This document shows, piece by piece, positions 4,479 to 59,900 of a stretch of DNA of 64,000 bases (its first letter is position 1; every line of letters starts with the position of its first letter). A program made the position numbers and the translations under genes. This DNA is from Promethearchaeota archaeon (GTDB lineage: Archaea; Asgardarchaeota; Lokiarchaeia; Sigyniarchaeales; SOKP01): contig JBHLNF010000003.1 of NCBI GenBank assembly GCA_048937405.1, positions 216,624-280,623 on the forward strand. Direction: 5' to 3'. The notes beneath the pieces were generated by a model. The model was not told where the DNA came from. It ran no database searches and saw only the letters and a program-made list of their open reading frames with translations.

Positions 4479-5009
4479 ATGTCTCAACTAATATACACTT
4501 TTAAAACAATAATAATTGGTCCAGCAGCAGTAGGAAAATCTAGTCTTATACGTAGATTTGTAGAAAATAAATTTTCTTTACATTATAAATTCACGATTGG
4601 GGTTGATTTTTTAACAAAAGAGGTTGAATTCGAAACAGGAAAGATTTCTAAACTTACATTGTGGGATATAGGTGGACAAGACCGTTTTAAGGTATTGCGT
4701 AAAAGTTTTTATGAAGGAACCAATGGAGCGATTGCTGTATTTGATCTTTCAAGAGCTCAAACTTTTTCAAAAATGAAAGAATGGGTCTCAGATGCTCGTC
4801 AAACTATTGAAACTAATTTTCCGGTTGTTATAATTGGTAATAAATCTGATTTAATTCCGGATATTGGGTTAGTTATTGATCGAAATGAGGTTAAACAATT
4901 CGCTGAGAAAGAAAAAACTATATATATTGAAACTTCTGCTAAAACAGGAGATAATGTTGAAGAAGCTTTTCTTGAACTTACAAAACGAATGATAAAAGAA
5001 TGTTCCTAG
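4479..5009 (+). CDS. Rab/Ras-like small GTPase (paralog 1 of 3)
   Basis: G1 GPAAVGKSSL, switch I FTIGVDF, G3 WDIGGQDRF, G4 GNKSDL, G5 ETSAKTG. 176 aa. Confidence 0.85.
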   Translation: MSQLIYTFKTIIIGPAAVGKSSLIRRFVENKFSLHYKFTIGVDFLTKEVEFETGKISKLTLWDIGGQDRFKVLRKSFYEGTNGAIAVFDLSRAQTFSKMKEWVSDARQTIETNFPVVIIGNKSDLIPDIGLVIDRNEVKQFAEKEKTIYIETSAKTGDNVEEAFLELTKRMIKECS

Positions 5010-5222
5010 TTCTTAAGTAAGATAAAATTTACTATTACCTTAGTTTAACCATATATTTTTTATTTTTTTTAATATCCATAAATCTACTAATTTTGTTCTC
5101 TAAGCTATTTTATTTAATTTTTTGCAGATTTGGGATAGATTTCAATTTGAATATCTAATAACATGAATATAAATTGATGAATTCTTATTCTTAGTCTATA
5201 TAGAAAATTATATTGTTTTCTA

Positions 5223-5747
5223 ATGACGGAATATACCTTTAAGATACTAGTTATTGGACCTGCTGCAGTAGGAAAATCTAGTTTAATACGACGATTTGTT
5301 GATAATGAGTTTTCATTACAATATAAATTCACTATTGGTGTGGATTTTATGACAAAGAATATTATTAATAGACAAAATCAAAGTATTAGACTAACTATTT
5401 GGGATATAGGGGGCCAAGATCGATTCAAAGTATTACTCCGGAGTTTTTACGATGGTGCTCATGGGGCAATTGTAGTTTTTGATCTCTCAAGACCTTATAC
5501 ATATTTAAAGATGAAAGATTGGATTTCTGATATGTACAAAATAATGCAAAAAAGAATTCCTATTGTGATACTAGGAAATAAACTTGATCTGATAAGTGAA
5601 ATTGGTGAAACAATAGATCGAAATGAACTTTTTCAATATACTGAAAAAGAACGTTATTTTTATTTAGAAACATCTGCTAAAACAGGTGAAAATGTAGAAA
5701 ATGCTTTTACAGAAATTACTCAAAGAATTTTAGATAAAAATTATTAA
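5223..5747 (+). CDS. Rab/Ras-like small GTPase (paralog 2 of 3)
   Basis: GPAAVGKSSL, TIGVDF, WDIGGQDRF, GNKLDL, ETSAKTG. 174 aa. Confidence 0.85.
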   Translation: MTEYTFKILVIGPAAVGKSSLIRRFVDNEFSLQYKFTIGVDFMTKNIINRQNQSIRLTIWDIGGQDRFKVLLRSFYDGAHGAIVVFDLSRPYTYLKMKDWISDMYKIMQKRIPIVILGNKLDLISEIGETIDRNELFQYTEKERYFYLETSAKTGENVENAFTEITQRILDKNY

Positions 5748-5884
5748 TTTTTAATCTTAAAAAGTTCGTTTTATAATGATTAAAATGAATTAAAGGCATT
5801 TTTTTTTTCTATTTAAATTCAATGGTTTAGAAAATTTTAAAATATCAAACTAAGATAATTTAATAAAAGTAGCTTTGATACAAA

Positions 5885-6421
5885 ATGACGCTTTATGTAT
5901 TTAAAGTTTTAATAATAGGGCCAGGAGCAGTAGGGAAAACTTCACTTTTACACAGATTTGTGGAAAATAAGTTCTCTTTTCGGTATAAATTAACGATTGG
6001 AGCGGATTTTTTAGCTAAAGTTATTCAAGATCATCCAAAACCAGGATCAACAATAAAAATGCAAATTTGGGATATTGGAGGTCAAGAACGATATAAATTC
6101 CTAAGATCCAGCTTTTTTGATGGTGCCAATGGAGCCCTAATAGTATTCGATTTATCTCGATGGCATACATTTGAAGAAATTGATGAATGGTTATCAGATT
6201 TATATGAATATGCAGGTAAAGATGTTCCTTTTGCGTTAATTGGAAATAAGGCAGATCTAATTAACTCAAAAGACGAACTTTATGAACGAGAAAGCGCACA
6301 AGTATTTGCTAAGAAAGAAAAAACATTTTATGTTGAAACTTCTGCAAAAACAGGCGAAAAAGTAGAGGATGCTTTCTTGAATTTGGCAGAATTAATGATT
6401 AAAAAGATTAATCCTGATTAA
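5885..6421 (+). CDS. Rab/Ras-like small GTPase (paralog 3 of 3)
   Basis: GPGAVGKTSL, TIGADF, WDIGGQERY, GNKADL, ETSAKTG. 178 aa. Confidence 0.85.
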   Translation: MTLYVFKVLIIGPGAVGKTSLLHRFVENKFSFRYKLTIGADFLAKVIQDHPKPGSTIKMQIWDIGGQERYKFLRSSFFDGANGALIVFDLSRWHTFEEIDEWLSDLYEYAGKDVPFALIGNKADLINSKDELYERESAQVFAKKEKTFYVETSAKTGEKVEDAFLNLAELMIKKINPD

Positions 6422-10499: not shown

Positions 10500-13262
10500 A
10501 TGACTGAATCTAATAAAAAGGCAGCTGGAGATAAAATCAAGGGAACTTCTTCAATTGAATTACTTAAAAAAGTAAATTCTGCAGCTAATTATTGTTATAA
10601 TTGTAATCGATGTAATAATGTATGCCCCACTGCCTTTCTTGACATCTTTTACCCTCGTAGTTTAATTACTGATTTAATTTATCTAACCCCCGAAGAAGCT
10701 CTGCAAAATAATGATATTTGGAAATGTCTTACTTGTGGCTTATGTTCAATTTATTGTCCAATGACTAAAGAAAACACTGGAGTAAATTTTACGCAAATTA
10801 TTAGGGATCTTCGGTCTCTTGTTTCAGATTATAAACCATTACAAGATGGATTGTTAAGTTGTAATCACGAGAGAGTATACTCAAGTCTGCCAAAATTAAT
10901 GGCTGAAGACAAAATTAAATTTACTAATAAGACTGGTTTCATTGATGGAACAGGATTAAAAATAACAGATAAAGGAGATATTGGTTATTTCATGGGATGT
11001 ATTCCCTTTTTGACAGGAGCAGCTCCGTGCGTTATTGGATGTCCTGCGGGAGTAGATGTCCAAGGATATGTATCACTTATTTCAGAAGGTAAGTTCCAAG
11101 AGGCTCTCGATCTTATTAGAGAAACTAATCCATTACCATATTTATGTGGGAGAATTTGTACTGCTCAATGTGCTTTAAATTGTAACCGTCAACATTTTGA
11201 TGATCCTGTAGCTATACGCGAACTTAAAAGGTTTGTTTGTGATTGGGAAAGAGATCACCCTAACCAGAGTAGAATTAAACCAGTTCCACAAACTAAAGAG
11301 AGGGTTGCCATTATTGGAGCTGGACCGGGGGGATTATCAGCAGCATATTTCCTTGCAAGAATGGGATATAAACCTACGATTTTCGAGAAAGGAGATAAAG
11401 TTGGAGGTGTAGTAAGATATGGTGTCCCACAGTATAGACTTTCTGATGAAGCACTTGACCAAGATGTTGAATTCATAAAAAGTATGGGTGTAGAAATTGT
11501 TTTAAATAAAGAATTTGGTCCCAATTTCACCCTAGAAGATATTTGGAAAGATGGATATAAAGCAGTCTTCATTGCTGTAGGTTTATACGTACCAAAGACT
11601 CTAAGACTCGAAGGGGAAGACTTACCTAATGTAGATGTTGCAATTGATTTTCTATTAGAACGAAAATATAAATGTTCTGAAAATCCAGAGGAATTTAAAG
11701 GTAAAACTTTTGGTATTATTGGAGGAGGTGCTGTTGCTGTAGATGTTGCTGAGACAGTAGTTCGACTCGGAGCTGTTAAAGCTAATTTGGTTGACATATT
11801 AAGTGAAGAAGCTCTTAAAAATGTACTTAAAGATTTACACGAAGCTGAAAGAGAAGTAATTGAATATCATTTTGAAACATCAACAGCTAAAATTTCAAAA
11901 GAACCTAATGGTAAATTAGCTTTAAATTGTTATAAGATTAAATGGGGAGATCTCGACCGTAAAACTGGAAGACGATCCCTGAATAAAATTGATGGTTCAG
12001 AATATAAAATTATTGTTGACCATATTGTAATAGCAATCGGGCAAGGACTTAATTCAGAACCACTTCTAGTTGCTACTGATAATAAGTTAAAGATTGATAG
12101 AGGCAAACTTATCGTTGATAATCTAACATATGAAACAGGTATTCCTGGAGTCTTTGCGGGGGGAGATATTATAAATAATTCATTAATGTGTGCAGTTGAT
12201 GCTATAGGAGATGGAAGAGAAGCGGCTTTTTCGATAGATAGATATCTCCGCGGATTTGATTTAAAAGAAGGAAGAATTAGAAAGAATGATCTAAAACGGT
12301 CTACTATACCTAAAAAATATATTCAAGTTCAATCTTGCCAAGATATGAATTTTATGCCTGGTTCTGAGAGATTGGTCTGTTTTGACGAAATTGAGTTAGG
12401 ATTTACAGAAGAACAAGCGAAAAAGGAAGCTAATCGATGTTTGAATTGTAATTGTTGCTGTAATTCTGACCAAATACCAGAGGATTTTGAAAAATCACTT
12501 AATTCTTCTGGAATAATGATATGTGATTATGGAAGTCAAACTAATTGGAGATCTTTAAATGCTCCTGATTATTTAGAAATTCCAAGAAGTATAATTGGAA
12601 TATTAAATCAAAATGATATTGTTCCAGTTGTTTTATCTGAAGAAAAATGTTGTGGACATGATCTTCTTTGGAGGGGAGATACTGAGAGTTTTAGAAAATT
12701 AGCGGAATATAATGTTAAACTCTTTAAAGATGCAGGAGTAAAGACCCTAATTTTTAGTTGCGCTGAAGGATATTATACCTGGAAATTTGAATATAAAAAA
12801 TTATTTAAAAATAGCGATGATTTCGATTTTAAAATTTATCACATAACAGAATATATTTTAAAGGAGAATTTGCTTGAAAATATCACATTTCCTAACTATG
12901 ATAATATTAAAATAACCTACCACGATCCTTGTAGACTAGGCAGAATGAGTAATGTATTTGATGCTCCACGTGAAGTATTAAAACTTATACCCTATGTAGA
13001 GATAGTTGAAATGGAGGATTCAAAGCAAGATGCTGAATGTTGTGGTGTTTCAGCTTATATTTCATGTAATCAGGATTCGAAAAAATTACAGGAGAAAAAG
13101 ATAAACCAAGCAATTGAGACTGGAGCAGAATACCTTATTTCCTCATGCCCAAAATGTATTGCCCATTTAAATTGTTATTTAAATGAAAATAGAGAATTAA
13201 AAGATAAAATAAAGGTTATAGATCTAGTAAGTTTTCTTGGAAAACAACTTTTTTTGATTTAA
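10500..13262 (+). CDS. Multidomain Fe-S flavoprotein: HdrC-like 2x[4Fe-4S] + GltD/NfnB-like NAD(P)H-FAD oxidoreductase + HdrB-like double CCG domain
   Basis: CYNCNRCNNVCP and CLTCGLCSIYCP (HdrC-like). GltD-type N-domain NPLPYLCGRICTAQCALNC. Dinucleotide folds VAIIGAGPGGLSAAYFLA and FGIIGGGAVAVDVA, plus GVFAGGDI. C-terminal CCG signatures EKCCGHD, HDPCRLGR, ECCGVSAY, SSCPKC. Confidence 0.65.
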   Translation: MTESNKKAAGDKIKGTSSIELLKKVNSAANYCYNCNRCNNVCPTAFLDIFYPRSLITDLIYLTPEEALQNNDIWKCLTCGLCSIYCPMTKENTGVNFTQIIRDLRSLVSDYKPLQDGLLSCNHERVYSSLPKLMAEDKIKFTNKTGFIDGTGLKITDKGDIGYFMGCIPFLTGAAPCVIGCPAGVDVQGYVSLISEGKFQEALDLIRETNPLPYLCGRICTAQCALNCNRQHFDDPVAIRELKRFVCDWERDHPNQSRIKPVPQTKERVAIIGAGPGGLSAAYFLARMGYKPTIFEKGDKVGGVVRYGVPQYRLSDEALDQDVEFIKSMGVEIVLNKEFGPNFTLEDIWKDGYKAVFIAVGLYVPKTLRLEGEDLPNVDVAIDFLLERKYKCSENPEEFKGKTFGIIGGGAVAVDVAETVVRLGAVKANLVDILSEEALKNVLKDLHEAEREVIEYHFETSTAKISKEPNGKLALNCYKIKWGDLDRKTGRRSLNKIDGSEYKIIVDHIVIAIGQGLNSEPLLVATDNKLKIDRGKLIVDNLTYETGIPGVFAGGDIINNSLMCAVDAIGDGREAAFSIDRYLRGFDLKEGRIRKNDLKRSTIPKKYIQVQSCQDMNFMPGSERLVCFDEIELGFTEEQAKKEANRCLNCNCCCNSDQIPEDFEKSLNSSGIMICDYGSQTNWRSLNAPDYLEIPRSIIGILNQNDIVPVVLSEEKCCGHDLLWRGDTESFRKLAEYNVKLFKDAGVKTLIFSCAEGYYTWKFEYKKLFKNSDDFDFKIYHITEYILKENLLENITFPNYDNIKITYHDPCRLGRMSNVFDAPREVLKLIPYVEIVEMEDSKQDAECCGVSAYISCNQDSKKLQEKKINQAIETGAEYLISSCPKCIAHLNCYLNENRELKDKIKVIDLVSFLGKQLFLI

Positions 13263-13499
13263 AATTATTTAAAATCTTATTTATTAAACAGATTTGAATA
13301 GAAATCTGTTTTATTTTAATAATTAACAAATATGTCAATATCTCTAGTTTATTCTTAATTCAAATAGATAAATCTACAGATTGACAATTTTAAAAATAGA
13401 GATTTTTAAGATTAACAAGTAACCTTTAAAATTTTGCTAATTTATTTTAAATATCTACAATCTATTTAAAATATAAATATACAACTAGTTGTGAAAAAC

Positions 13500-15425
13500 A
13501 TGAGTAAAACTAAGGATATACCTGTTCCGGATAAAGTTTCAGGTTTTACACAGGTCAGACTTGATGTAAATCTAACAGATGGAAAGATTAGTAAATCAAC
13601 ACTTTCTAATGAATTCTGTCGTGACTGGATTGGAGGTTATGGTTTTGGTGCTAAAGTACTTTGGGATGAATGTCCTGCTGGAGTTGATCCATTAAGCCCA
13701 GAAAATGTTTTTGTCTACGCTCATGGACCATTTCCAGGTACAATATTACCTACATCAAGTAAATATGGGGTATTTGCTAAATCTCCATTAACTGGTATGT
13801 TTGGAATGGCTATATCTTCAGGATCGGTTGGTGCTCAAGCCCGACGTGCTGGTATCAATATGATTGTTGTTAAAGGTAAGGCTCCAGAACCTGTGTATAT
13901 GGTTGTTGATGATGATGATTATTATTTAGTAAAATGCAAAGATTCCGTGTGGGGAAAGGGTTGCTGGGAAACAGAAGAACTTTTGAGAGAGGAATTCCAA
14001 GATCATCGTCTTGGAATAATGACTATTGGTCCAGGAGGCGAACGTGGAAGTTATATGGGATGTATAACAAATGATCGAAATAGACAAGCAGGGAGGACAG
14101 GTATGGGTGCTGTTATGGGATCAAAAAATCTAAAAGCAATATGCTTCAGAGGTACCAAGGGAATTAGTGTTGCTAATCCTGTCGAATTCTATAAATTAGC
14201 AAAGAAATTAATAAAAGTAGCAAATGGTCCTGCTACGGCTAAATATCGAGATTTAGGTACACCTGCAGGGATAACCAGTTATAATAAACTTGGAATGATG
14301 CCAACTTTCAACCATCGTGAGGGTACATGGGATAAGGTAGATGATGGAACTTTTACTGGTGATACATTAAACCAAGATTGGGTTGTAAAGAAGGTTGCTT
14401 GCTCGCAATGTTCAATAGGATGTGATCATATTACAAAAATACCTAAAGATCATCCTCATTGGCCTAATCTCTATTCTAGTATTGATCAAGAATTATGCTA
14501 TAGCTTTGGATCTGCTTGTGGAAATTATGATTGGCCATCTGTATTTAAATGTGTTTCATTAACAGATGATTTGGGTATTGACGCTATAAGCGGAGGTGTT
14601 ACAGCTGCTATGGCTTGTGAGTGTTATGAAGAAGGAATTATAACTAAAGAAGATTTAGGTTATGAATTACCTTTTGGATCAACTGTTAATCTCGTAAGAT
14701 TCACTGAAGAGATGATTCTTGGTAAAGGATTTGCAGGGAAGGTTTTTGGAGATGGTACAAGAGAAGCAGGAAAGCGATTAGAAGAAATGGGCAGAAAAAA
14801 TGCAAGTTATTATGGTATGCATATTAAGGGATTAGAAATACCTGCATTTGATGTACATGGTATGAATTCTTTTGCTGTTGGAATGAGTGTTTCTATTCGT
14901 GGTGCATGTCATTTACGGAATGGCTCATATGGTCTCGATGCTAAAGGAAATTTCGACAGATTTGGGTATGATAAACCACTTGAGAGAGGAAAAGCAATAA
15001 AAGATCTAGAAGATATATACGCTATAATTGATTCATATATCGTATGTAAATTTACTCGAGGTATCTATGAAAATGATGCTGAAATGGCAAAAGTGTTTGA
15101 ATTAGTAACAGGAATTCCAGTAACAGATAAATTTATACAACATAGAGGAGATGCCATTTTAAATCTTTCAAAGTGTTTTAACATCCGAGAAGGATGGACG
15201 AGAGATGATGATAGACCTCCTGAACGATTCTTCAAGCAACCACACACAAAAGGTCCAGCCAAGGGTGTTACCTTAAAGGAAGATGGTTATCAGAAATTAT
15301 TAAGTGGTTATTATGAAGCTCGAGGTTGGGATACTAAAACTGGAATTCCAACTGATGAAACATTGAAATCACTTGGATTAGATTTTGTAATTGGTAAATT
15401 AAAGCCCGCTGGAGGTAAGAAGTAA
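13500..15425 (+). CDS. aor: Tungsten-containing aldehyde:ferredoxin oxidoreductase (AOR family)
   Basis: AOR-type N-terminus (VRLDVNLTDGKI..DWIGGYGFGAKVLWDE). Fe-S/pterin region KKVACSQCSIGCDH. ~640 aa. The ORF track starts at GTG 13491; ATG 13500 is equally possible. Confidence 0.85.
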   Translation: MSKTKDIPVPDKVSGFTQVRLDVNLTDGKISKSTLSNEFCRDWIGGYGFGAKVLWDECPAGVDPLSPENVFVYAHGPFPGTILPTSSKYGVFAKSPLTGMFGMAISSGSVGAQARRAGINMIVVKGKAPEPVYMVVDDDDYYLVKCKDSVWGKGCWETEELLREEFQDHRLGIMTIGPGGERGSYMGCITNDRNRQAGRTGMGAVMGSKNLKAICFRGTKGISVANPVEFYKLAKKLIKVANGPATAKYRDLGTPAGITSYNKLGMMPTFNHREGTWDKVDDGTFTGDTLNQDWVVKKVACSQCSIGCDHITKIPKDHPHWPNLYSSIDQELCYSFGSACGNYDWPSVFKCVSLTDDLGIDAISGGVTAAMACECYEEGIITKEDLGYELPFGSTVNLVRFTEEMILGKGFAGKVFGDGTREAGKRLEEMGRKNASYYGMHIKGLEIPAFDVHGMNSFAVGMSVSIRGACHLRNGSYGLDAKGNFDRFGYDKPLERGKAIKDLEDIYAIIDSYIVCKFTRGIYENDAEMAKVFELVTGIPVTDKFIQHRGDAILNLSKCFNIREGWTRDDDRPPERFFKQPHTKGPAKGVTLKEDGYQKLLSGYYEARGWDTKTGIPTDETLKSLGLDFVIGKLKPAGGKK

Positions 15426-15980
15426 ATGTCAAAAGCCACAAAAAAGAGAGGCGGAGTAGTTCACCAATTCATTATAGTTGATCCAAACTTATGTACAGGA
15501 TGCGAAACCTGTGAATCAGTTTGTTCATTTGTTCATGATGGAGAATTCAATCCAATAAACACTAGAATTCATAGAGTCAGAATCGAACCCATTTTAAACG
15601 TTGCCTTAGCCTGCCAGAAATGTGATGATGCTCCATGTGTTCGTAGTTGTCCCGAAAAAGCCTTAGAACAAGATAAAAAAACAGGTTCAATTATCGTCGA
15701 TGATGATAAGTGCAATGGTTGCGCTTTTTGTATCCGCGCATGCGATTTTGGTGTTTTGAGTTTACATATTCAATCTCAAAAAGCTTTAATTTGCGATCTT
15801 TGTGAAACTATGAAGGAGGATTATATTGATCCCGAAAGGGGTGAAAAGTACCCAGCTTGCATTGATGTTTGTCCAAAGGAAGCAATCTCATTAAAAGATG
15901 TAGAACAAATAGGGGAAGAAAAGCGTATTGATGCTGTAAAGAGATTGTTCGGGGAGATATTAGAAGAAACTAAAGCGTAA
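15426..15980 (+). CDS. 4Fe-4S dicluster ferredoxin-type subunit, translationally abutting AOR
   Basis: CTGCETCESVC, CQKCDDAPCVRSCP, CNGCAFCIRAC, C..CIDVCP. The ATG directly follows the AOR stop (TAAATG at 15423-15428). Confidence 0.7.
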   Translation: MSKATKKRGGVVHQFIIVDPNLCTGCETCESVCSFVHDGEFNPINTRIHRVRIEPILNVALACQKCDDAPCVRSCPEKALEQDKKTGSIIVDDDKCNGCAFCIRACDFGVLSLHIQSQKALICDLCETMKEDYIDPERGEKYPACIDVCPKEAISLKDVEQIGEEKRIDAVKRLFGEILEETKA

Positions 15981-16566: not shown

Positions 16567-16922
16567 ATAATAATTAGGTTTAATCTTATCAATCATAATC
16601 AAAAAAACATTAATTAGTAACTTATGCATTTTAAGAAGAAAATTGATCAAAATTGATGCAATTTCAGAACTAATTGCACGGAAATGATAATATTATAACT
16701 CGTTTTTAACGATATTCGTCTATTCTAATTTTGTAAGTCTTTTAGGTATAATAATTACTATAAACTCATTAAACTTCAATGATAGGGAAATTACATGTCA
16801 TAATAATTTAATTTTAATAATATAGACTATTTATTTTATCATTAGAATTTCTGGGATTAGTATTAAAGACTAATCTAAGAGATTATCGATCTTTAAAATT
16901 TAGGAGGTTAAACTAACTAAAG

Positions 16923-18908
16923 GTGAATTATTTGTCTGATAAACAGACCAATGATAATAATAGCGAAGTTCAGCAAAGAATAGGTGTGTTTGTTTGCCAT
17001 TGAGGCGTCAATATCGCAGGAATTCTAGATATTCCTAAGATCGTCGAGGAAATAAATAAATTAGATAATGTTTGGGCCTATCCGTATTTATCATTATGTA
17101 CTGAAGGTGGATCTAGTGAAATTAAAGAAAAACATGAAGAAGTTAAATTTAATAGGGTCTTAGTTGCAGCTTGTACCCCAAAAACTCATCAACCAGTTTT
17201 TCATGCAATATTAAAAGAGATGGGATTACCTCCAAGATATTTAGAATTCGTAAACATTCGAGAACATTGTTCATTCGTACACCAAGCTCCAGAAGTGCGT
17301 GAAAAGGCTACTCTAAAAGCCATTGAATTAATCAAAGCTGGTATCGCTAGAGCAAAATTATTGGAAGATGTACCTACTAAAACTGTCCCAGTAGAACCAA
17401 CAGCTCTAGTGGTAGGAGGAGGAATTTCAGGTTTATCTGCTGCTATTGATCTAGGTGATGCTGGGTACAAAGTCTACTTAATTGAAAAAAATACAACCAT
17501 AGGTGGTCGCATGTCTCAGCTTGACAGAACATTCCCGACAGATGATTGTTCTATATGAATTTTGGGACCAAGAATGCTTGAAGCTAATCGTCATCCAAAC
17601 ATTGAAATCTTATCTTTTAGTGAAGTAGATAAAATAGATGGATATATCGGAAATTTCCAAGTAAATGTCAGAAGAAAAGCTCGATTTGTTCTTGAAGATA
17701 AATGCACAGGTTGTGGTACATGTACAGATGTATGCCCCGTTTATATAAGTAATTATTTTGATGAACATCTATCAGCAAGAAAAGTTATTGATATTGCATT
17801 TGCTCAAGCTGTACCTGCAATATCACAACTCGAAAGAGACGCATGCATTGAATGTTTTGCCTGTGTTGATGCCTGTGAACAATCAGCTATAGATTTTAGC
17901 CAGCAAGATGAGATCGTTGAACTTAAAGTTGGTACGATAGTAGTAGCGACTGGTTGGGATCTTTACAAAGGAGATGACTATGGTTATGGTACTTATGACA
18001 ATATAATTAATCAAATAGAATTAGAGAGGATTCTTGCTCCAAATGGACCAACATATGGCCATTTGAAACGACCTTCTGATGGTAAACGTCCTTCAAAAGT
18101 GCTCTTCATTAATTGTGTTGGATCAAGAGATATCAATAAAAATGCTCATTGTAGTGTTATTTGTTGTAATCTCTCACTAAAAAATTCTAAACTTATCAAA
18201 TCAGAGTATCCAGATTCACAAATCGTTTGTTGTTATATAGATATGAGATGTGCTGGAAAAGATTATGAAGAATACTATAGGAGATCTCGGGATGCAGGAA
18301 TAATTTTTGTTAAAGGATTGGTTGGAAAAATTGAAGAAGATCCATTAACTAAAAACCTTATAGTACAGTTTGAGCCAGTTGGAACAGATTCTGTAGTTAC
18401 TATGGAATTCCATATGGTAGTGTTGTCATCTGCTTCACTTCCATCTCAAGGTACAGTTGAAATTGCTAAAGTACTAAATATGGAAAAAAGTCCTGATGGA
18501 TTTTTAAAAGAATATCACGCTCGACTTGATCCAATTAGTACAAAAGTACCTGGAATATATATCTGTGGTTCTGCTCAAGGTCAGAAGGAAATTGATAAGG
18601 CAGTAAGTCAAGCGAGAGGAGCTGCATCTGTGGCAGGCATTCCAATGGGAAAAGGAGAATATACTATGGAATTAATTCGAGCTACTCCTTCGGATGAAAG
18701 ATGCGCAAAATGTTATAAATGCATAGAAGCATGCCCATATACAGCGATTTCTGTAAATGAAGAAGGTAATATCGTTGTTAACCTAATAAACTGTCGAGGC
18801 TGTGGAACTTGTGCATCTTTATGTCCATCGAAAGCAATTGAGTTAACTTACTATAGAGATGATCAATATATGGCATTAGTAGATGAATTACTGCCTATAG
18901 AGGAATAG
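16923..18908 (+). CDS. hdrA: Heterodisulfide reductase subunit A, selenoprotein (two in-frame UGA = Sec)
   Basis: My translation. The frame is open from GTG 16923 (AGGAGG at 16903-16908; in-frame TAA at 16914) to TAG 18906, except TGA 17001-17003 and TGA 17556-17558. Reads RIGVFVCH-U-GVNIAG and TFPTDDCSI-U-ILGPRM, both at Cys positions of conserved HdrA motifs. Also VVGGGISGLSAAIDL, NCVGSRD..HCSVICC and ferredoxin motifs CTGCGTCTDVCP and CRGCGTCASLCP. The ORF track shows only fragments 17220..17558 and 17562..18908. Confidence 0.8.
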
Positions 18909-18921
18909 AGAGGTAAAGAAA

Positions 18922-19386
18922 ATGACAAAAGAAAATGATAATGAAATCAAAATTATTGTGTTTGCTTGCTGGAAATGAGGATACGGTTCAGCTGATATGG
19001 CAGGTACTATTCGAGCCCAATATCCAGACTCGATTAGAAATGTTTTAGTACCTTGCTCAGGACGTGTAGGACCAGATTTAATTATGAGAGCATTTGGAAG
19101 AGGTGCCGATGGTGTAGTAATTAACGCTTGATATCCTGGTGAATGCGATTATGAGACTGGTAATTATCACGCATATCGACAAGTTGAATATATTAAAGAA
19201 ATACTAGAAGTAATTGGAATGAGTCCAGATAGATTAAAGATAATCTACTGTACCGCTGCTGAAGGTCAGAAATTTCAAAATGAAGCAATAGAAATTGATA
19301 AAACAATACGTAAATTAGGAATAAATCCTCTTCGTACGAAAAGCACACCTAAAAAAGAAAAAACTAAAGCTAAAGCAAAAGCTTGA
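18922..19386 (+). CDS. mvhD: MvhD/VhuD (FlpD-type) hydrogenase delta subunit-like protein, selenoprotein (two in-frame UGA = Sec)
   Basis: My translation from ATG 18922 (GAGGT 7 nt upstream): MTKENDNEIKIIVFACWK-U-GYGSADMAG..VPCSGRV..GADGVVINA-U-YPGECDYETGNYHA. TGA at 18976-18978 and 19129-19131 falls at Cys positions of the MvhD family. Terminal TGA at 19384-19386. Absent from the ORF track. Confidence 0.75.
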
Positions 19387-19400
19387 GTTATTAAATGTGT

Positions 19401-19446
19401 TTACTGATGAGATTGAGTTAAAAAAATGAGAACTCAGTTGAGGTAA
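19401..19446 (+). promoter_or_regulatory. Candidate SECIS element (kink-turn hairpin, AUGA..A-rich loop..GA) in the mvhD 3' UTR
   Basis: Hand fold. Helix I 19401-19405 (UUACU) pairs with 19442-19446 (GGUAA). 3-nt bulge at 19406-19408. Tandem sheared G19409.A19441 and A19410.G19440. 9-bp helix II 19411-19419 with 19431-19439. 11-nt apical loop AAAAAAAUGAG. Confidence 0.45.
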
Positions 19447-19571
19447 TGGATGCACCATATAACACATAAAAAAGTTTAATTATATTTAATAAAAATTTTA
19501 AAAATTGAATCAAAAATTTGGGAAATTTAAGAAAAAATAATTGGTTAATTAATAGTTAGAGTTGGAAATAC

Positions 19572-20711
19572 ATGGAAACCATGGCAGAATACTTAATAAA
19601 GATTGAAGATTTTTCTAAAATCTTAACAACTTTATTAAAAGAAAAAGCAGTGGATAAAATAATAGGGGCTGAATTGAGAGTTGATAAAAAATCTGGAACT
19701 ATTGATAGATTTACTGTTCAACCAAAATTAGTAGAAAAAGAGGAAGATCTAAAAGATTTTCCACTGACTCCTTTAATCGCATTTGGATACGCAAGAACGG
19801 ACTCTGCTTCTAAATTTTTGCATAAATCAGTAGCGGGTGCTATGAAAGAAAAAGTTGGACTTATAGCACGACCATGTGATACTAGAGCATTAATTGAACT
19901 CGCAAAGCTAAAACAAGTAAATCTTGATAATCTTTTTATAATTGGTATCGAAGATCGAGGTATGCTTCCAAAAGCAGGAAGAGAAATGAGAGCGATTAAA
20001 GATGTTGATCCTACTAAGATAATAAAAGAAAAAGTCGGAGATAACGGTCTAATCGTAAAATTTGAAGATGGAAAATCAAAAGAACTTAATCTTACGGTTG
20101 CGGAGAATTGTTTGAGATGTTATCGTAAAATCCCTATAATCGCAGATTTGACGGTTAGTGATCTCGGTATTCCAATTGATTCAGATGAGATTATCTTGAA
20201 AGTTTATTCTGAAAAAGGTAGTAATATTTTAGATAAATCTGGTATTAAAACAAAAAAACTTCCAGATAAAGAGAAGAAGACTCATTTAGATAAATATAAT
20301 GAAATTATTGCAAAAGCTAAAGAAAAAAGAGTAAAGGATTTGGAAGAATGGAAGAACTTATCACAAAAGGAAAAGATAACAGAATTACTTAAATGTACGA
20401 TGTGTAATACTTGTATAAGAGGATGTCCAGTGTGTTACTGTGTTGATTGTATCCTTATGAAAAAGAGAAAAGATAAAAATATTGACAAAGCAACTTATCA
20501 GTTAACACGAATCGCTCATGATGCGGATAGGTGTGTAGAATGTGGAAATTGTGATAACAACTGTCCTCAAAATTTACCGTTATCCCTCTATTTCCAGTCA
20601 TTAAATGACTCTTTTAAAGAAAAATTCGGTTATGAAGCAGGAATGTCTGTTGATGATATTCCATTTCGATCTGGTAAAGCAATTTCCCAGATGGAATTAG
20701 AGAAAACTTAA
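19572..20711 (+). CDS. FrhB/FdhB-like Fe-S protein (putative electron-input subunit linked to HdrA-MvhD)
   Basis: VGLIARPCDTRALIEL...LFIIGIE resembles the FrhB/FdhB core. Two ferredoxin motifs, CTMCNTCIRGCP and CVECGNCDNNCP. The family assignment is tentative. Confidence 0.4.
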   Translation: METMAEYLIKIEDFSKILTTLLKEKAVDKIIGAELRVDKKSGTIDRFTVQPKLVEKEEDLKDFPLTPLIAFGYARTDSASKFLHKSVAGAMKEKVGLIARPCDTRALIELAKLKQVNLDNLFIIGIEDRGMLPKAGREMRAIKDVDPTKIIKEKVGDNGLIVKFEDGKSKELNLTVAENCLRCYRKIPIIADLTVSDLGIPIDSDEIILKVYSEKGSNILDKSGIKTKKLPDKEKKTHLDKYNEIIAKAKEKRVKDLEEWKNLSQKEKITELLKCTMCNTCIRGCPVCYCVDCILMKKRKDKNIDKATYQLTRIAHDADRCVECGNCDNNCPQNLPLSLYFQSLNDSFKEKFGYEAGMSVDDIPFRSGKAISQMELEKT

Positions 20712-20853
20712 ACTATATTTTTTTAATTCTTTATTTTATTGTTTTATTAAAATAATAAAGATCTTTTTTAGAGAATTTTCTTCTTTTTTGTAAAAAAATA
20801 GGTATAAATATTGATATTTTTTTATCGTATTTAAAAAAATTTATGTGAAATTT

Positions 20854-21738
20854 ATGTTATTACAAAATATAGATGCCGAAATGGTATTTAATCTTCTAGT
20901 AGCTCCAGTACTCGCATGTAGTTTGCTTTTTGTTGCTTATTTGATACTACGAAAAAAAGGAAGAGGGATAAATTCCGCAGAGTTTAAGGTTATCTTCATG
21001 TTTCTTACAGCAATAGCGGTAATGGTAACCATTACAATATTAGTAAATGCAGTGTTTGAATATGGTGGTCTCCCTTTAATTTTTGGTTTTATCATAGGAA
21101 TCGGTTATATGTTATTTGGTTTATTTTACATCGGTAGGACGATTTATAGAGCAAATAATAAGATAAATAATTTATTAGAGAATGTAATCAAATCAAGCTC
21201 AGAAGTAGCTATCAATGTGGCTAACATTGCAGCAGAATTAGCGGCAAATGCTAGTGAGATAAATGCGTCATCCGAAGAGATCGCATCCTCTACAGCTGAA
21301 ACAACAAGCCTTACAGAAGGAATTATGAGAGCTTCAAGTGAAATAAATAATGTTAATGAACTAATTACAAACATAGCTGATCAAACAAATTTATTGGCGT
21401 TAAATGCCAGTATTGAAGCAGGTAGAGCTGGTGAACATGGGAGAGGGTTTGCGGTCGTAGCAGATGAAGTTCGAAAACTTGCAGAAGAATCAAAAAGAGC
21501 GGTGAGTAATACTGGCAGTAAGATTACAGATATAATAAAAAATATACAGCTTTCTTTTAATAATATGGAAGGAATAAGTTCGGCATCGGAACAACAAAGT
21601 GCTTCTATGGAAGAGATCACAGCAACTGCAAACAAATTAGGTATATTGGCAGAAGATTTAAAGGATACTCTGAAAGTATCAGATGAACCGACTAAGCAAA
21701 AAAAGAAAATCACCTTAAAAGCAATAAGGAAACATTAA
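20854..21738 (+). CDS. Minimal methyl-accepting chemotaxis protein (MCP-signal domain), copy 1
   Basis: Canonical MCP hairpin tip [39 protein letters not shown]. Three N-terminal hydrophobic helices, no HAMP. The ORF track starts at GTG 20845; ATG 20854 (MLLQN) matches the TTTATGTTATTACAA start context of copy 2. Confidence 0.85.
21181..21738 (+). repeat. MCP 3' cassette, copy 1 (near-identical DNA repeat)
   Basis: Starts at AATGTAATCAAATCAAGCTCAGAAGTAG. Aligns to 22752-23309 and 26313-26795 with only scattered mismatches. Confidence 0.85.
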
Positions 21739-21817
21739 AATCAGTCAGGTAAAAAATCTGCCAAGAAGTTCAAATAGAATATTTTATTTTCTATATATTT
21801 ATTTTTTTTATAGGTAT

Positions 21818-22048
21818 GAACTAAGAAAACTAATTTTTTTAGGGAATAATATTTCAATTAAAGATTTTGATGATGATTTGACTATAGCATCCTTCACGAT
21901 GTAATTTGTTTCATTACATGTTCTATCTCCTAATATTAGTTTTAGAAAAAACGTACCGGGAATCATGAGATCAGTAATATCAGGATTCGGATATTCTTTT
22001 TCACTTTTAATTTTCTCAATTTTTCCGTTGATAAATTCCAGTGCAATT
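21818..22048 (-). pseudogene. Duplicated 3' fragment (~76 codons) of the GNAT gene at 23379..24650
   Basis: 21739-22048 aligns by eye at roughly 95% identity to 23310-23619. It has no upstream gene body and ends at the duplication junction near 22049. Confidence 0.6.
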
Positions 22049-22230
22049 GGTGTATAGAATGCGGAAATTGCGATAAGAATTGTCCGTAAAATTTACCATT
22101 ATCTCTTTATTTCCATTCATTAAATGACTCTTTTAAAGAAAATTTCAGTTATAAAGCAGGGATGTCTATTGATGATATTCCATTTCGATTTGGAAAACCC
22201 ATCGCAAAAATGGAATTAGAGAAAACTTAA
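22049..22230 (+). pseudogene. Duplicated 3' fragment of the FrhB-like gene (parent 20530..20711) with a premature stop
   Basis: Translates WCIECGNCDKNCP*NLPLSLYFHSLNDSFKENFSYKAGMSIDDIPFRFGKPIAKMELEKT*. Parent reads RCVECGNCDNNCPQNLPLSLYFQSLNDSFKEKFGYEAGMSVDDIPFRSGKAISQMELEKT*. CAA changed to TAA; no 5' part. Confidence 0.75.
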
Positions 22231-22412
22231 TTTTTATTCTATTAAATTACATATTCTTATTATGATTATGTGAAAAAAGTGCAAAATTTATGTTCAATAG
22301 TACAAACAATGGTAGAAATATAAAGTTATTTATACAAAAATTTTCTTCAGTTAATAAAATATATTTATTATATTAAGATCAAAAAAGAACTACAGAAAGT
22401 GATGGTAGGTTT

Positions 22413-23309
22413 ATGTTATTACAAGAAATACTTCTTTCCCGAGACCAAGAAATAATACTGTCCGAAATAATACAAACCATAGTTATTTTATCGTTGATGA
22501 TAGTTGCTTCACTTCTAATACTAAAAAGAATAAGAAAAGGAATAAAATCTCCTGAATTTAAGGTTGCTTTTATGTTTCTTTCATCGATTATGGTAATGAT
22601 AGTGATGGTAAAACTTATAGACTTTTTTGAAAAGACTGCTATAGCTCAAGCTTTTGGTTATGTCTTTGGAATTAGTTATATGATAGGGTGCCTATACTTA
22701 ATTATTAAAAGTACTATTAAAGCAAATAGTAAAGTGGATGATTTATCAGATAATGTGATCAAATCAAGCTCAGAAGTAGCTATCAATGTGGCTAACATTG
22801 CAGCAGAATTAGCGGCAAATGCTAGTGAGGTAAATGCGGCATCCGAAGAGATCGCATCCTCTACAGCTGAAACAACAAGCCTTACAGAAGGAATTATGAG
22901 AGCTTCAAGTGAAATAAATAATGTTAATGAACTAATTACAAACATAGCTGATCAAACAAATTTATTGGCGTTAAATGCCAGTATTGAAGCAGGTAGAGCT
23001 GGTGAACATGGGAGAGGGTTTGCGGTCGTAGCAGATGAAGTTCGAAAACTTGCAGAAGAATCAAAAAGAGCGGTGAGTAATACGGGCAGTAAGATTACAG
23101 ATATAATAAAAAATATACAACTCTCTTTTAATAATATGGAAGGAATAAGTTCTGCTGCCGAACAGCAAAGTGCTTCTATGGAAGAGATTACAGCAACTGC
23201 AAACAAATTAGGTACACTGGCAGAAGATTTAAAGGATACTCTGAAAGTAGCAGATGAACCGACTAAGCAAAAAAAGAAAATCACCTTAAAAGCAATAAGG
23301 AAATATTAA
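22413..23309 (+). CDS. Minimal methyl-accepting chemotaxis protein, copy 2
   Basis: Same MCP tip motif. The C-terminal ~185 aa are nearly identical to copies 1 and 3; the N-terminal membrane part is divergent. Confidence 0.85.
22752..23309 (+). repeat. MCP 3' cassette, copy 2
   Basis: See copy 1. Shares diagnostic substitutions with copy 3 ([20 protein letters not shown]), where copy 1 has [20 protein letters not shown]. Confidence 0.85.
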
Positions 23310-25976: not shown

Positions 25977-26882
25977 ATGATTTTTATGTTTCTACAGGGA
26001 TTTAGTGTTGAAGAAATTTCTTATCTTTTGTTTCCTGCGATAATTTTTTTTGTTTTGACGATTGGTTTTTATTTCTTCATCAAAAGAAGGGGAAAGGGGA
26101 TAAAATCTAAAGAATTCAAAATTATCATCATGTTCTTTAGTTCGGTTATGATTATGGTCTATATGACAGTAATTGGATTATTATGGTTTGCTGATAATGT
26201 GACAGTTCAATTAGTTGTCCAAATTATTGGAATTGGTTCTATAACAGCAGTTGCATTTATTATTATTAGAATTATTTACAACACGGATACTAAATTGGAC
26301 AATTTAGTGAATAATGTAATCAAATCAAGCTCAGAAGTAGCCATCAATGTAGCAAATATTGCAGCAGAATTAGCAGCAAATGCTAGTGAGGTAAATGCGG
26401 CATCCGAAGAGATTGCATCCTCTACAGCTGAAACAACAAGCCTTACAGAAGGAATTATGAGAGCTTCAAGTGAAATAAATAATGTTAATGAACTAATTAC
26501 AAACATAGCTGATCAAACAAATTTATTGGCGTTAAATGCCAGTATTGAAGCAGGTAGAGCTGGTGAACATGGGAGAGGGTTTGCGGTCGTAGCAGATGAA
26601 GTTCGAAAACTTGCAGAAGAATCAAAAAGAGCGGTGAGTAATACGGGCAGTAAGATTACAGATATAATAAAAAATATACAACTCTCTTTTAATAATATGG
26701 AAGGAATTAGTTCTGCTGCCGAACAGCAAAGTGCTTCTATGGAAGAGATTACTGCAACTGCAAACAAATTAGGTACACTGGCAGAAGGTTTGAAGGATTC
26801 TTTGAAAGCAGCAGAAGAATCACCAAAAAAAAAAAAGGCGACAAATATATTATCAAAAATTAAATCATCTAAAGAATATTAA
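25977..26882 (+). CDS. Minimal methyl-accepting chemotaxis protein, copy 3
   Basis: Same MCP tip motif and near-identical cassette 26313-26795. Divergent N-terminal membrane region and a different Lys-rich tail. An alternative ATG at 25986 (MFLQG) parallels copies 1 and 2. Confidence 0.85.
26313..26795 (+). repeat. MCP 3' cassette, copy 3
   Basis: See copies 1 and 2. Similarity ends after ..AACAAATTAGGTACACTGGCAGAAG. Confidence 0.85.
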
Positions 26883-26964: not shown

Positions 26965-27384
26965 TCATTTTTTATTTAGTCTTATTATAAAAGTATAACC
27001 TTTATTTCTTTCCTCAGATTCTACAATTTTTTGCCTACCGTATAAATCTACAATTTCTTTTGAGAGATATAACCCTAATCCATATCTTTCAATATCTACC
27101 CCCAAATCCAATCTATATCTCTCAATTTTTCCAAACTTTTCAAATAATTTTTCTTTTTCTTTCTTAGTTATTCCCACTCCAGTATCTTTTACCCAGATAT
27201 CAATATTTTCAGGATTTTCGATAAGATTAACTAAAATTTCACCTCCTTTTGGAGTGTTCTTCATTGTATTTGAAATAATATTTGAAATCATCTGTCTGAA
27301 ACTAATTTTATCTATCTCTATATAGATTTCACTTGTCATATCAAATTTCAATTTTAACTTACAATTAGCTGCTAAGTAGTTCAT
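26965..27384 (-). CDS. Stand-alone histidine-kinase ATPase (HATPase_c) domain, no HisKA/H-box (truncated or split kinase)
   Basis: N box ISNIISNTMKNTP, G1 DTGVGI, G2 YGLGLYL. Only 139 aa. The upstream 180 nt is non-coding-looking. Confidence 0.55.
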   Translation of the reverse strand: MNYLAANCKLKLKFDMTSEIYIEIDKISFRQMISNIISNTMKNTPKGGEILVNLIENPENIDIWVKDTGVGITKKEKEKLFEKFGKIERYRLDLGVDIERYGLGLYLSKEIVDLYGRQKIVESEERNKGYTFIIRLNKK

Positions 27385-34715: not shown

Positions 34716-35489
34716 ATGTCGCTTCCATCAAAAAAAGCTATTCAAGTTGATGAGAATACAGTTAATTATGAGTATAAAATGTTAAACCATGTAATGTCGC
34801 TGGTTTACCACGAAGATAAATGCATTGAATGTGGATTTTGTCATCGAGTTTGCCCTGTTACTGTTTCAATTTATGATGAGCCTTTAAAAAAAACTGCAAT
34901 AGGAACACCAAAAGAGATGAGCATTGAATCAGACAAAAAAATCGTAGTTGATACAGAGAAATGTGTATGGTGTGGCTGTTGTACCTGGATCTGTCCAGGT
35001 TATACGTTAGAACTTTTCATAAATGGAGAGAAAAAGTTAAATGTTGTCGAGAATGGTTCACTTCCAGAATTCGAAGAAGAAGTAAGGACATTAGAAGATG
35101 GAAAAAAAGTTCGAAAAGTAGTAGAAGGTTCTATAACAATTACGTGTAATGAGAAAGATAAAAAAATAATAGAGGCATTTTGCGACGAATGTACCGTCAG
35201 TGCGATGGAAAGAAAGGATACTGAAATTGAAATAGATGGAGATAAATGCATTCTATGTTTTAAATGCTCTGAAGCAGCTAAGGAATATGATAATATTACT
35301 GTTGAAATTCATCGTGATAGATTTAAAAATGTAAAAGGAGAGCCTTCTTCTGTGTGGAATGGTATTATGTTAAGAGTTCTTGGAAAAGAAGGTAAAGTTA
35401 AGGGTATTTTGAGTCGAAGCCAAAATAAACTTGCTGATGCAGTTATGAGATTAATGGGAAAAGAATTTGAAGAAGAAGAGGAAGCTTAA
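34716..35489 (+). CDS. 4Fe-4S ferredoxin-domain (polyferredoxin-like) protein
   Basis: CIECGFCHRVCP, CVWCGCCTWICP, CILCFKCSEA. Confidence 0.6.
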   Translation: MSLPSKKAIQVDENTVNYEYKMLNHVMSLVYHEDKCIECGFCHRVCPVTVSIYDEPLKKTAIGTPKEMSIESDKKIVVDTEKCVWCGCCTWICPGYTLELFINGEKKLNVVENGSLPEFEEEVRTLEDGKKVRKVVEGSITITCNEKDKKIIEAFCDECTVSAMERKDTEIEIDGDKCILCFKCSEAAKEYDNITVEIHRDRFKNVKGEPSSVWNGIMLRVLGKEGKVKGILSRSQNKLADAVMRLMGKEFEEEEEA

Positions 35490-59339: not shown

Positions 59340-59900
59340 TCACTTTTGCATATCGCGTTTTAATAGAGCTAATATTATAGCATCATGATATTCTCCTTGA
59401 AAAATTAAATATTGTTTTAAAATTCCTTCAATAATAAAGCCGCATTTTTCAAAAAGAGAAACTGATCTATGGTTTTTAATTGCAATATATGCTTCAAGTC
59501 TATTCATTTTTAGATGATTAAAAGCGATTTTTTTAATTAAATTTAAGGATCTCTCTCCCAATCCTTTACCCCAAAAGGATGGAAGTAGCCAAATTCCAAT
59601 TTGAGTTCTTTTATGTTGCCAATTAATATTCCAAAGACTTATTGAGCCGATTTTAATTTTATCAATATTATGTAATTCGATAATATAATTAAATTGAAGA
59701 TATTTGTCCCAATATCTTAAATAATTTTTAATTAATCCTTTCGAATGCTCTAATGATTCTAATGGCCTCAAAGATAAGTAATTTGTCAAATCTTTTTCAC
59801 TCAGACTATTGAAAAAGAAATCAGCATCGTTTTTCAAAACCTTTCTAAGAAAAAGGTTGTGATCTTCAATTACTTCAACTATTTCTAAGTTATTTTTCAT
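59340..59900 (-). CDS. GNAT acetyltransferase (RimJ/RimL-like)
   Basis: WGKGLGERSLNLIKKIAF motif A. LFEKCGF. Confidence 0.75.
   Translation of the reverse strand: MKNNLEIVEVIEDHNLFLRKVLKNDADFFFNSLSEKDLTNYLSLRPLESLEHSKGLIKNYLRYWDKYLQFNYIIELHNIDKIKIGSISLWNINWQHKRTQIGIWLLPSFWGKGLGERSLNLIKKIAFNHLKMNRLEAYIAIKNHRSVSLFEKCGFIIEGILKQYLIFQGEYHDAIILALLKRDMQK

Follow-up and report, generated by a model that had tools for sequence, protein, structure and literature searches.

Are the hdrA and mvhD genes of a Lokiarchaeia-type Asgard archaeon broken, or are the four in-frame TGA codons that interrupt them read as selenocysteine (Sec)? The question is posed by a 64,000-nucleotide stretch of contig JBHLNF010000003.1 from a Promethearchaeota archaeon (hereafter the window, in whose numbering all coordinates are given unless another locus is named), in which a gene for an HdrA-like protein is followed by a gene for the hydrogenase delta-subunit-like protein MvhD, also known as VhuD or FrhD. 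Alignment with solved homologues, comparison with related Asgard loci and a conserved RNA hairpin directly downstream of mvhD indicate that the four TGAs are Sec codons served by a single selenocysteine insertion sequence (SECIS) at 19407-19441, a reading to which we assign a probability of about 0.93. The arrangement has precedent, in that Mariotti et al. described in 2016 tandem Lokiarchaeota genes for a multi-Sec HdrA and a two-Sec VhuD that share one SECIS, termed lokiSECIS, together with a rule for their stop codons (PMC4989117), which confirms the statement in a preliminary description of this DNA that Sec usage was already published for Lokiarchaeota.

Translation of the forward strand gives a 661-codon HdrA-like frame at 16923-18908 whose sole internal stops are two TGA codons, the first between GVFVCH and GVNIAG (site 1) and the second between TDDCSI and ILGPRM (site 2; Table 1). 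Only 13 nt past the end of hdrA, an ATG opens a 154-codon MvhD frame that contains two further TGAs, between FACWK and GYGSAD and between VVINA and YPGECD, and that itself ends in TGA. A mechanical list of open reading frames (ORFs) recovers hdrA only as the fragments 17220-17558 and 17562-18908 and holds no ORF of at least 60 amino acids within 18909-19571. The coordinates that the preliminary description gave for both frames and for the four TGAs are thereby borne out by translation, and the ORF list agrees with what it had said of an ORF track with hdrA fragments followed by a gap, and of default pipelines that would mis-annotate both genes as pseudogenes.

The identities of the two genes, proposed before any search had been run, hold up against Pfam and the PDB. 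The HdrA-like protein matches the Pfam families FAD and NAD_binding_8 and has two Fer4 regions, and its architecture is that of HdrA, with N-terminal Fe-S, FAD/thioredoxin-reductase-like, inserted ferredoxin and C-terminal ferredoxin domains. It aligns end to end with the HdrA subunits of five methanogen complexes (E 1e-202 to 1e-173), the best match being chain A of PDB entry 9SFI from Methanococcus maripaludis (residues 19-657, E 1.3e-202). MvhD matches PF02662, FlpD ("methyl-viologen-reducing hydrogenase delta subunit"; E 4.6e-42), and aligns with six solved MvhD and VhuD sequences at E 2e-32 to 2e-26.

In these alignments all four TGAs fall on cysteine columns, as had been judged by eye, and the solved sequences carry Cys there or, at three of the sites in 9SFI, Sec. 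HdrA site 1 lies opposite the second Cys of VC(H/Y)CG in all five solved HdrA sequences. Site 2 lies opposite Cys197 of 5ODC and opposite residue 197 of 9SFI; this non-standard residue is called Sec197 in the publication that describes the structure, where it belongs to a Cys-Sec pair between the flavin adenine dinucleotide (FAD) and the N-terminal cluster (PMC13518236). Both MvhD TGAs face Cys in every methanogen MvhD among the alignments listed (5ODC_D, 8RVU_F, 9SW2_D and 8RVV_F for site 1) and face the two non-standard residues of M. maripaludis VhuD, 9SFI_K; at residues 19 and 70, about 50 codons apart, they occupy both Sec positions of methanococcal VhuD. Judged by alignment, three of the four sites (HdrA site 2 and both MvhD sites) are the classical methanococcal Sec positions and the fourth, HdrA site 1, corresponds to a Cys that is conserved in the N-terminal Fe-S domain of HdrA. 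Sec use in HdrA and VhuD of Methanococcales, to which the preliminary description had appealed, is illustrated by the non-standard residues of 9SFI, one in HdrA (residue 197) and one at each of the two VhuD sites.

The same alignments bear on the idea that the genes are split, with fragments such as 17562-18908 translated separately and assembling into a functional enzyme. An in-frame TTG at 17562, after the second TGA, could be cited for such a start, but neither a ribosome-binding site nor a conserved start follows any of the TGAs, and the break at HdrA site 2 falls within a CxxU motif that spans it. The breaks fall exactly where M. maripaludis HdrA and VhuD are known to have Sec, and a 26-residue N-terminal peptide of HdrA and a 19-residue peptide of MvhD are implausible as subunits. 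We regard split genes as extremely unlikely and retain the reading of the TGAs as Sec codons.

The conservation of the four codons was followed in 80 loci that encode relatives of the C-terminal HdrA fragment (53-95% identity), found by scanning one genome per GTDB species; with one exception the loci are labelled as Promethearchaeota or Asgard metagenome-assembled genomes (MAGs) or only as uncultured archaeon, and the nearest of these GTDB representatives reach 95% identity. When the window's two proteins were aligned to each locus translated in frame, the codon was TGA in every covering locus: 74 of 74 at HdrA site 1, 77 of 77 at HdrA site 2, 75 of 75 at MvhD site 1 and 76 of 76 at MvhD site 2. 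Neither Cys nor any other codon occurs at the four sites in the covering loci; in the rest the sequence stops short of the site or, in the case of the two mvhD sites, a neighbouring mvhD is lacking. The alignments run at full length through the TGAs, conservation of the protein is strong on either side of each, and the frames are free of other stops and of frameshifts. Such a recurrence of the four codons lies far beyond chance.

A reading in which the TGAs are real stops, with hdrA and mvhD as pseudogenes, or are errors of sequencing or assembly, would account for the fragments that default ORF calling yields and would sit easily with a window in which Sec machinery is absent. It conflicts with the recurrence of the same four TGAs in every covering locus of 80 independently assembled Asgard loci, with the conserved protein on either side of each TGA, uninterrupted by other stops or frameshifts, and with the covarying SECIS that is conserved directly downstream. 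Because the TGAs are common to every covering locus and the alignments run through them, assembly error and pseudogenisation are, as far as comparison of sequences can decide, excluded, and the probability we leave to them is negligible.

Several relatives appear to carry additional Sec codons in HdrA. Nine orthologues have an extra Sec at the position of C59 (YLSL-U-TEGG; L015, L022, L024, L025, L026, L053, L055, L057 and L058) and three paralogues at that of C84 (VAA-U-TPKTH; L075, L076 and L079), and L079 has two more, at about residues 310 and 394, one in the inserted ferredoxin domain and the other in the context FIN-U-AGSRD. The window HdrA has Cys at the columns of these extra Sec codons, where Cys and Sec interchange frequently within the clade. 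This pattern agrees with the description of Loki HdrA proteins as having up to four Sec at five possible positions (PMC4989117).

The RNA element that would serve these codons begins 20 nt past the mvhD stop. It consists of AUGA (19407-10), a 9-bp stem formed by GAUUGAGUU (19411-19) and AACUCAGUU (19431-39), an 11-nt apical loop AAAAAAAUGAG (19420-30) and a closing GA (19440-41), and it has every feature listed for the lokiSECIS, namely AUGA, a 9-bp stem, an 11-nt loop that opens with at least about five A and ends in G (usually AG), and GA (PMC4989117). When both strands of the 64 kb were scanned for the pattern, of which shuffles predict 0.88 matches, the element with nine of nine stem pairs was the sole credible match; another match, at 49609, lies antisense to a gene, has seven of eight pairs and an AA core, and was set aside as chance level. 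An alignment of 73 orthologous elements shows compensatory changes in eight of the nine stem pairs, and 95.6% of its cells are paired, a share that drops to 27-51% if the 3′ partner is displaced by 1 to 3 columns; the observed stem values were not attained in any of 500 shuffles, and RNAalifold independently predicts the same 9-bp stem. A covariance model built from this alignment scores 97.4 bits at 19391-19476 and finds one strong match per orthologous locus, always directly after mvhD. Weaker matches of this model in the window were rejected, one at 34857-34941 (21.5 bits) that lies inside an intact coding ORF, does not have the SECIS stem (P2 below) and has no UGA-interrupted gene upstream, and two at 15300-15381 (18.5 bits) and 51046-51106 (17.1 bits) that lie inside intact ORFs where the strict pattern scan is blank. 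In the flanks of the 80 loci, no SECIS was found beyond the hdrA and mvhD copies.

A search of the whole window with Rfam gave nothing at gathering score, no SECIS family included, and over 19370-19580 no SECIS family appeared at E <= 10, the only matches being to C/D-box small nucleolar RNAs and long non-coding RNAs at chance level. The element is eukaryotic-SECIS-like in its motifs and is not a member of the Rfam SECIS_1 family. Could it be some other small RNA, such as a C/D-box RNA, or a terminator? The C/D-box matches reach 13-19 bits against gathering scores of 40-50, and a C-box-like CUGAUGA does occur inside the element. The regions that would be single-stranded guides nevertheless pair with each other and covary in eight of nine pairs, as in a hairpin, and the 3′ end has neither a D box (CUGA) nor a T-run. 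All listed lokiSECIS features are matched, and the element is found only beside UGA-containing genes, so that an identity other than a SECIS seems to us next to impossible.

The window also indicates how UGA is read outside these two genes. TGA ends at least three unrelated intact genes with complete Pfam domains, at 45831-46919 (LRR-TIR), 26965-27384 (HATPase_c) and 59340-59900 (GNAT), of which the first, closed by TGA 46917-46919, encodes an intact protein of 362 amino acids. Other candidates for genes with in-frame TGAs in the window were rejected, all being antisense to, or overlapping, long genuine ORFs. Since TGA ends other genes of the window and the lone SECIS lies 20 nt after mvhD, site-specific recoding rather than a change of code is supported, in line with the preliminary description, which had held TGA to be an ordinary stop elsewhere; mvhD joins the three intact genes in ending with it.

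These observations also weigh on decoding without selenium, whether by a variant code that reads UGA as Trp, Gly or Cys or by near-cognate readthrough that inserts Cys. In other systems Cys is inserted at Sec codons under selenium shortage, and at none of the four sites would Cys be chemically out of place. Against this stand the TGAs that end at least three unrelated intact genes plus mvhD, and the restriction of in-frame TGAs to conserved-Cys columns by a SECIS, with no other credible in-frame-TGA gene in the window. Decoding without selenium is in our view very unlikely, and the four UGAs are treated below as predicted Sec codons.

On this reading hdrA and mvhD, possibly with the frhB-like gene downstream, would form a bicistronic (possibly tricistronic) unit of a Lokiarchaeia-type Asgard archaeon, in which hdrA and mvhD are carried on one polycistronic mRNA and the two UGAs of each are decoded as Sec. 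Judging from the families involved, the kink-turn-type SECIS would recruit the archaeal Sec-specific elongation factor with Sec-tRNA(Sec). The lone element would then act on UGAs that lie 278, 431, 1851 and 2406 nt upstream of its core and so across a cistron boundary. The terminal UGA of mvhD, 23 nt from the core, would be too near for recoding and would act as a stop; if the terminal UGA is too close and the upstream UGAs are recoded, the hdrA stop must be UAA or UAG. A minimal distance between UGA and SECIS has been offered to explain this stop-codon pattern (PMC4989117), and the distribution of stops among 68 loci is as that model predicts, with hdrA ending in TAA (39) or TAG (29) and never in TGA, and mvhD ending in TAA in 61 and TGA in seven.

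At the protein level, the site 2 residue of HdrA (Sec212 counted from the GTG) would be the second member of a CxxU pair equivalent to C194-x-x-C/U197, beside the bifurcating FAD. In solved methanogen enzymes residue 197 either ligates the N-terminal [4Fe-4S] cluster of the other protomer or relays electrons to it (PMC9012536, PMC13518236). Sec27 would lie within the same N-terminal cluster domain, and the two HdrA selenols may converge on one cluster. The two Sec of MvhD would be two of the five conserved Cys positions of its family's [2Fe-2S] domain (C16, U19, C45, U70 and C75). The [2Fe-2S] cluster of MvhD is assumed to have four Cys ligands; if that is so, five conserved positions would imply that at least one Sec is a cluster ligand. 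Homology between the HdrA N-terminal domain and MvhD was considered and set aside as not significant (BLASTP E 0.8; hhalign P 0.009, probability 4%); the non-significant profile alignment has the expected register, C59 with C45 and C84 with U70, and can be taken as a hint only.

Some points weigh against Sec decoding at this locus. Within the 64-kb window there is no tRNA-Sec, EFSec/SelB, PSTK, SepSecS or SPS, and indeed no tRNA at all; since none of the machinery lies inside the window, its presence in the host genome rests on the literature, where the Sec trait is reported for 85.9% of Lokiarchaeia/Helarchaeales (PMC11227280). The case for Sec at the four UGAs is built on comparative sequence evidence, and we infer from it what appears to be one SECIS serving UGAs 2.4 kb away in another cistron. 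The SECIS matches no Rfam family, as is to be expected given that Rfam has no entry for the lokiSECIS.

The start of hdrA differs from that first proposed. The preliminary description placed it at GTG 16923, which appears to be three codons too early, and TTG 16932 is probably the start, judging by orthologues. The preference for TTG arises because at least 12 orthologous loci have a stop between the position of the GTG and the conserved NTG; in at least 12 related loci the GTG equivalent is out of frame or is then followed by a stop. The NTG at the 16932 position is conserved among relatives (TTG in 48, ATG in 10 and GTG in six), and a Shine-Dalgarno-like AGGTGA lies 5 nt upstream of the TTG.

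The hdrA 5′ region folds with z = -2.8, and a short hairpin, GUCUG-AUAAA-CAGAC, begins at the third base of the start codon (Table 1). It is present in 68 of 74 loci, with a loop of 4-7 nt in 64 and a longer loop in four (range 4-11 nt), and in these loci the stem is invariant while the loop varies in sequence and length. Codon choice within the hairpin is invariant despite a genome of 30% G+C. Because the stem persists in two loci (L014 and L023) in which the reading frame is shifted across it, the pattern of conservation points to a constraint on the nucleic acid and not on the peptide, and the hairpin may control translation initiation. A second hairpin is predicted in the hdrA 5′ leader at 16899-16921 (UUUAG..GUU-AAA-CUAAC..), where it overlaps a conserved GGAGG that stands upstream of the actual Shine-Dalgarno-like site. 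The leader also contains TTAGGAGGTTAG, conserved in most related loci.

Around the SECIS hairpin, designated P2, the RNA is predicted to form two further helices, an outer stem P1 that pairs AUGUGUU (19395-19401) with AACACAU (19461-19467) and a 3′ mini-hairpin P3 made of AUGG (19446-49), the loop AUGCA (19450-54) and CCAU (19455-58). P1 is paired in 93.5% of cells and includes three pairs with changes on both sides, and P3, which RNAalifold also predicts, is invariant within the orthogroup. Nine divergent Asgard elements were compared, comprising Hel-type hdrA and mvhD copies, Loki hdrA paralogues and a Sigynarchaeum locus (L080; Table 1). In eight of the nine the three-helix layout is again predicted and GCA again lies in the P3 loop, although the sequences of P1 and P3 are unrelated; in the Sigynarchaeum element P1 folds and a P3 candidate, GCC-CGCAA-GGC, was found only by eye. 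When the SECIS hairpin was swapped for an inert linker, the flanks of all ten elements (the nine and that of the window) folded better than shuffled sequence (z -1.6 to -4.8), with P1 forming in ten of ten and P3 in nine of ten. On these predicted folds P1 and P3 would hold their places while their sequences change altogether, from one lineage to another (Loki-, Hel- and Sigyn-type) and from hdrA-associated to mvhD-associated copies.

From these folds we raise, tentatively and with more doubt than conviction, the possibility that the Asgard hdrA/mvhD SECIS is a conserved three-helix RNA composed of P1, the AUGA/GA hairpin P2 and the GCA-loop hairpin P3, rather than a simple kink-turn hairpin. 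This extended architecture is the only part of the locus that might be new; in the running text of the 2016, 2024 and 2026 SECIS papers neither the outer stem P1 nor the GCA-loop hairpin P3 is mentioned. Were P3 to serve as an additional recognition site, perhaps bound by the Sec elongation factor or by a novel SECIS-binding protein in place of SBP2, it would be an undescribed part of an intermediate between archaeal and eukaryotic SECIS elements, and it could help to explain how one SECIS serves UGAs 2.4 kb off in another cistron. P1 and P3 offer a concrete target for mutagenesis in SECIS reporter assays. Reading P3 as a euryarchaeal SECIS of the GAA_A type (GAA-AUGG...CCAU-A) was considered and rejected: the GAA varies (GUA in the window, and GAG, GAU or GGA elsewhere), and where the euryarchaeal element needs three consecutive G/C pairs in its upper stem, P3 has only two G-C pairs.

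Variation in SECIS number and core was also seen among the relatives. In two Helarchaeota-type loci hdrA and mvhD each have a SECIS of their own, at 5379-5415 and 6712-6746 in L070, where the genes are not immediately adjacent, and at 2158-2193 and 2670-2704 in L073; this arrangement differs from the shared SECIS of the window. The core reads AGGA instead of AUGA in L079 and L072.

Compared with the Lokiarchaeota HdrA-VhuD pairs described previously, the window shows no material difference and represents one more orthologue. The shared features are more than one Sec in HdrA, including the canonical position, and two in VhuD/MvhD; tandem genes with a very short spacer and a lone SECIS after the second gene; and the set of SECIS motifs, with an hdrA stop of UAA or UAG and a tolerated terminal UGA in vhuD. 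Huang et al. in 2024 extended the Sec system to hundreds of Asgard MAGs (PMC11227280). In the supplementary sequence files of that study, where Sec is written as X, the motif GVFVCHXG occurs 16 times, DDCSIXILGP 198 times, ACWKXGYGSAD 11 times and INAXYPGECD 10 times, and an MvhD nearly identical to that of the window is included. The locus is thus a further orthologue of a selenoprotein pair that has been catalogued before, and we see no new biology in it, because the arrangement has been known since 2016 and the orthogroup belongs to the 2024 Asgard selenoproteome.

The comparison with more distant systems is mixed. The M. maripaludis HdrA and VhuD belong to the same protein families and have Sec at HdrA site 2 and at both MvhD sites, whereas methanogen HdrA has Cys at site 1 (VCYCG) and the Methanococcales SECIS is of the archaeal GAA_A type. 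The partners of the methanogen enzyme are HdrBC, the Vhu hydrogenase and Fwd, in methanogenesis; in the window the conserved partner is an FrhB-like protein, and the organism is a non-methanogenic Asgard archaeon. With the eukaryotic type I SECIS (Rfam RF00031, SECIS_1) the window element shares unpaired adenines that open the apical loop, a 3′ position, predicted action over a long distance and a nearby UGA that is still a stop, and it differs from it in a shorter upper stem (9 bp), in the two cistrons that it would serve and in the extra 3′ hairpin. SBP2 is not known from Asgard archaea (PMC4989117). The locus is a clean example of the Asgard Sec system that links archaeal and eukaryotic Sec decoding. 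It also has a practical consequence, as default annotation fragments both genes and Asgard genomes may consequently seem to be without a complete HdrA or MvhD; the same annotation problem has been reported for Sec-containing hdrA in methanogens (PMC12054007).

Table 1. Positions of the genes, predicted Sec codons and RNA elements discussed in the text, in the window and in related loci.
Feature	Sequence	Position	Strand	Remarks
hdrA, predicted selenoprotein gene	window	16932..18908	+	probable start TTG 16932; stop TAG 18906-18908; Pfam and PDB matches
Hairpin GUCUG-AUAAA-CAGAC	window	16934..16948	+	begins at third base of hdrA start codon
HdrA site 1, UGA predicted as Sec	window	17001..17003	+	VCH-U-G, N-terminal Fe-S domain; residue 27 (from GTG), 24 (from TTG)
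HdrA site 2, UGA predicted as Sec	window	17556..17558	+	DDCSI-U-ILGP; canonical Cys197/Sec197 position; CxxU motif
mvhD/vhuD/frhD, predicted selenoprotein gene	window	18922..19386	+	hydrogenase delta-subunit-like [2Fe-2S]; stop UGA 19384-19386
MvhD site 1, UGA predicted as Sec	window	18976..18978	+	CWK-U-GYG; residue 19
MvhD site 2, UGA predicted as Sec	window	19129..19131	+	INA-U-YPGEC; residue 70
Extended SECIS element	window	19395..19467	+	outer stem P1, SECIS hairpin P2, 3′ mini-hairpin P3
lokiSECIS (eukaryote-like, type I)	window	19407..19441	+	pattern scan, covariation, covariance model
frhB-like gene	window	19572..20711	+	FrhB_FdhB_C + 4Fe-4S; Pfam PF04432, Fer4
Divergent element	L070	5365-5448		
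Divergent element	L070	6696-6784		
Divergent element	L072	~5775-5860		
Divergent element	L073	2144-2226		
Divergent element	L073	2654-2740		
Divergent element	L075	5406-5486		
Divergent element	L076	5386-5470		
Divergent element	L079	5387-5470		
Divergent element	L080	~1285-1370		Sigynarchaeum

The frhB-like gene begins about 100 nt after the extended SECIS element and 185 nt after the mvhD stop, and a gene of this type lies downstream of the SECIS in 73 of the 80 loci. Its product is likely the third subunit of the HdrA-MvhD module. If the gene is co-transcribed with hdrA and mvhD, the SECIS would be intercistronic rather than in a 3′ untranslated region. Upstream of hdrA lie genes for a 920-amino-acid fusion of a ferredoxin domain, a GltD-like NAD(P)H flavoprotein and two HdrB-type CCG domains (10500-13262), for a tungsten-type aldehyde:ferredoxin oxidoreductase (13491-15425) and for a 4Fe-4S protein (15426-15980), the last two of which are syntenic in about 25 loci. 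The products of 10500-15980 may be redox partners of the module formed by HdrA, MvhD and the FrhB-like protein.

More widely, the gene content and base composition of the window fit a Loki-type Asgard archaeon. Its G+C content is about 30%, three tandem genes for Ras-family small GTPases (176, 174 and 178 amino acids), an Asgard hallmark, lie at 4479-6421, and LRR and TIR proteins are encoded. An ORF of 1820 amino acids at 53859-59321 has no Pfam match at E <= 1e-5, and neither do the large ORFs at 49913-52105, 52139-53392 and 47429-48637. Three paralogues of about 300 amino acids that contain only an MCP signalling domain are encoded at 20845-21738, 22413-23309 and 25977-26882. The first two are 675 nt apart (21739-22412), and two of the paralogues have near-identical 110-amino-acid antisense ORFs, which points to recent duplication.

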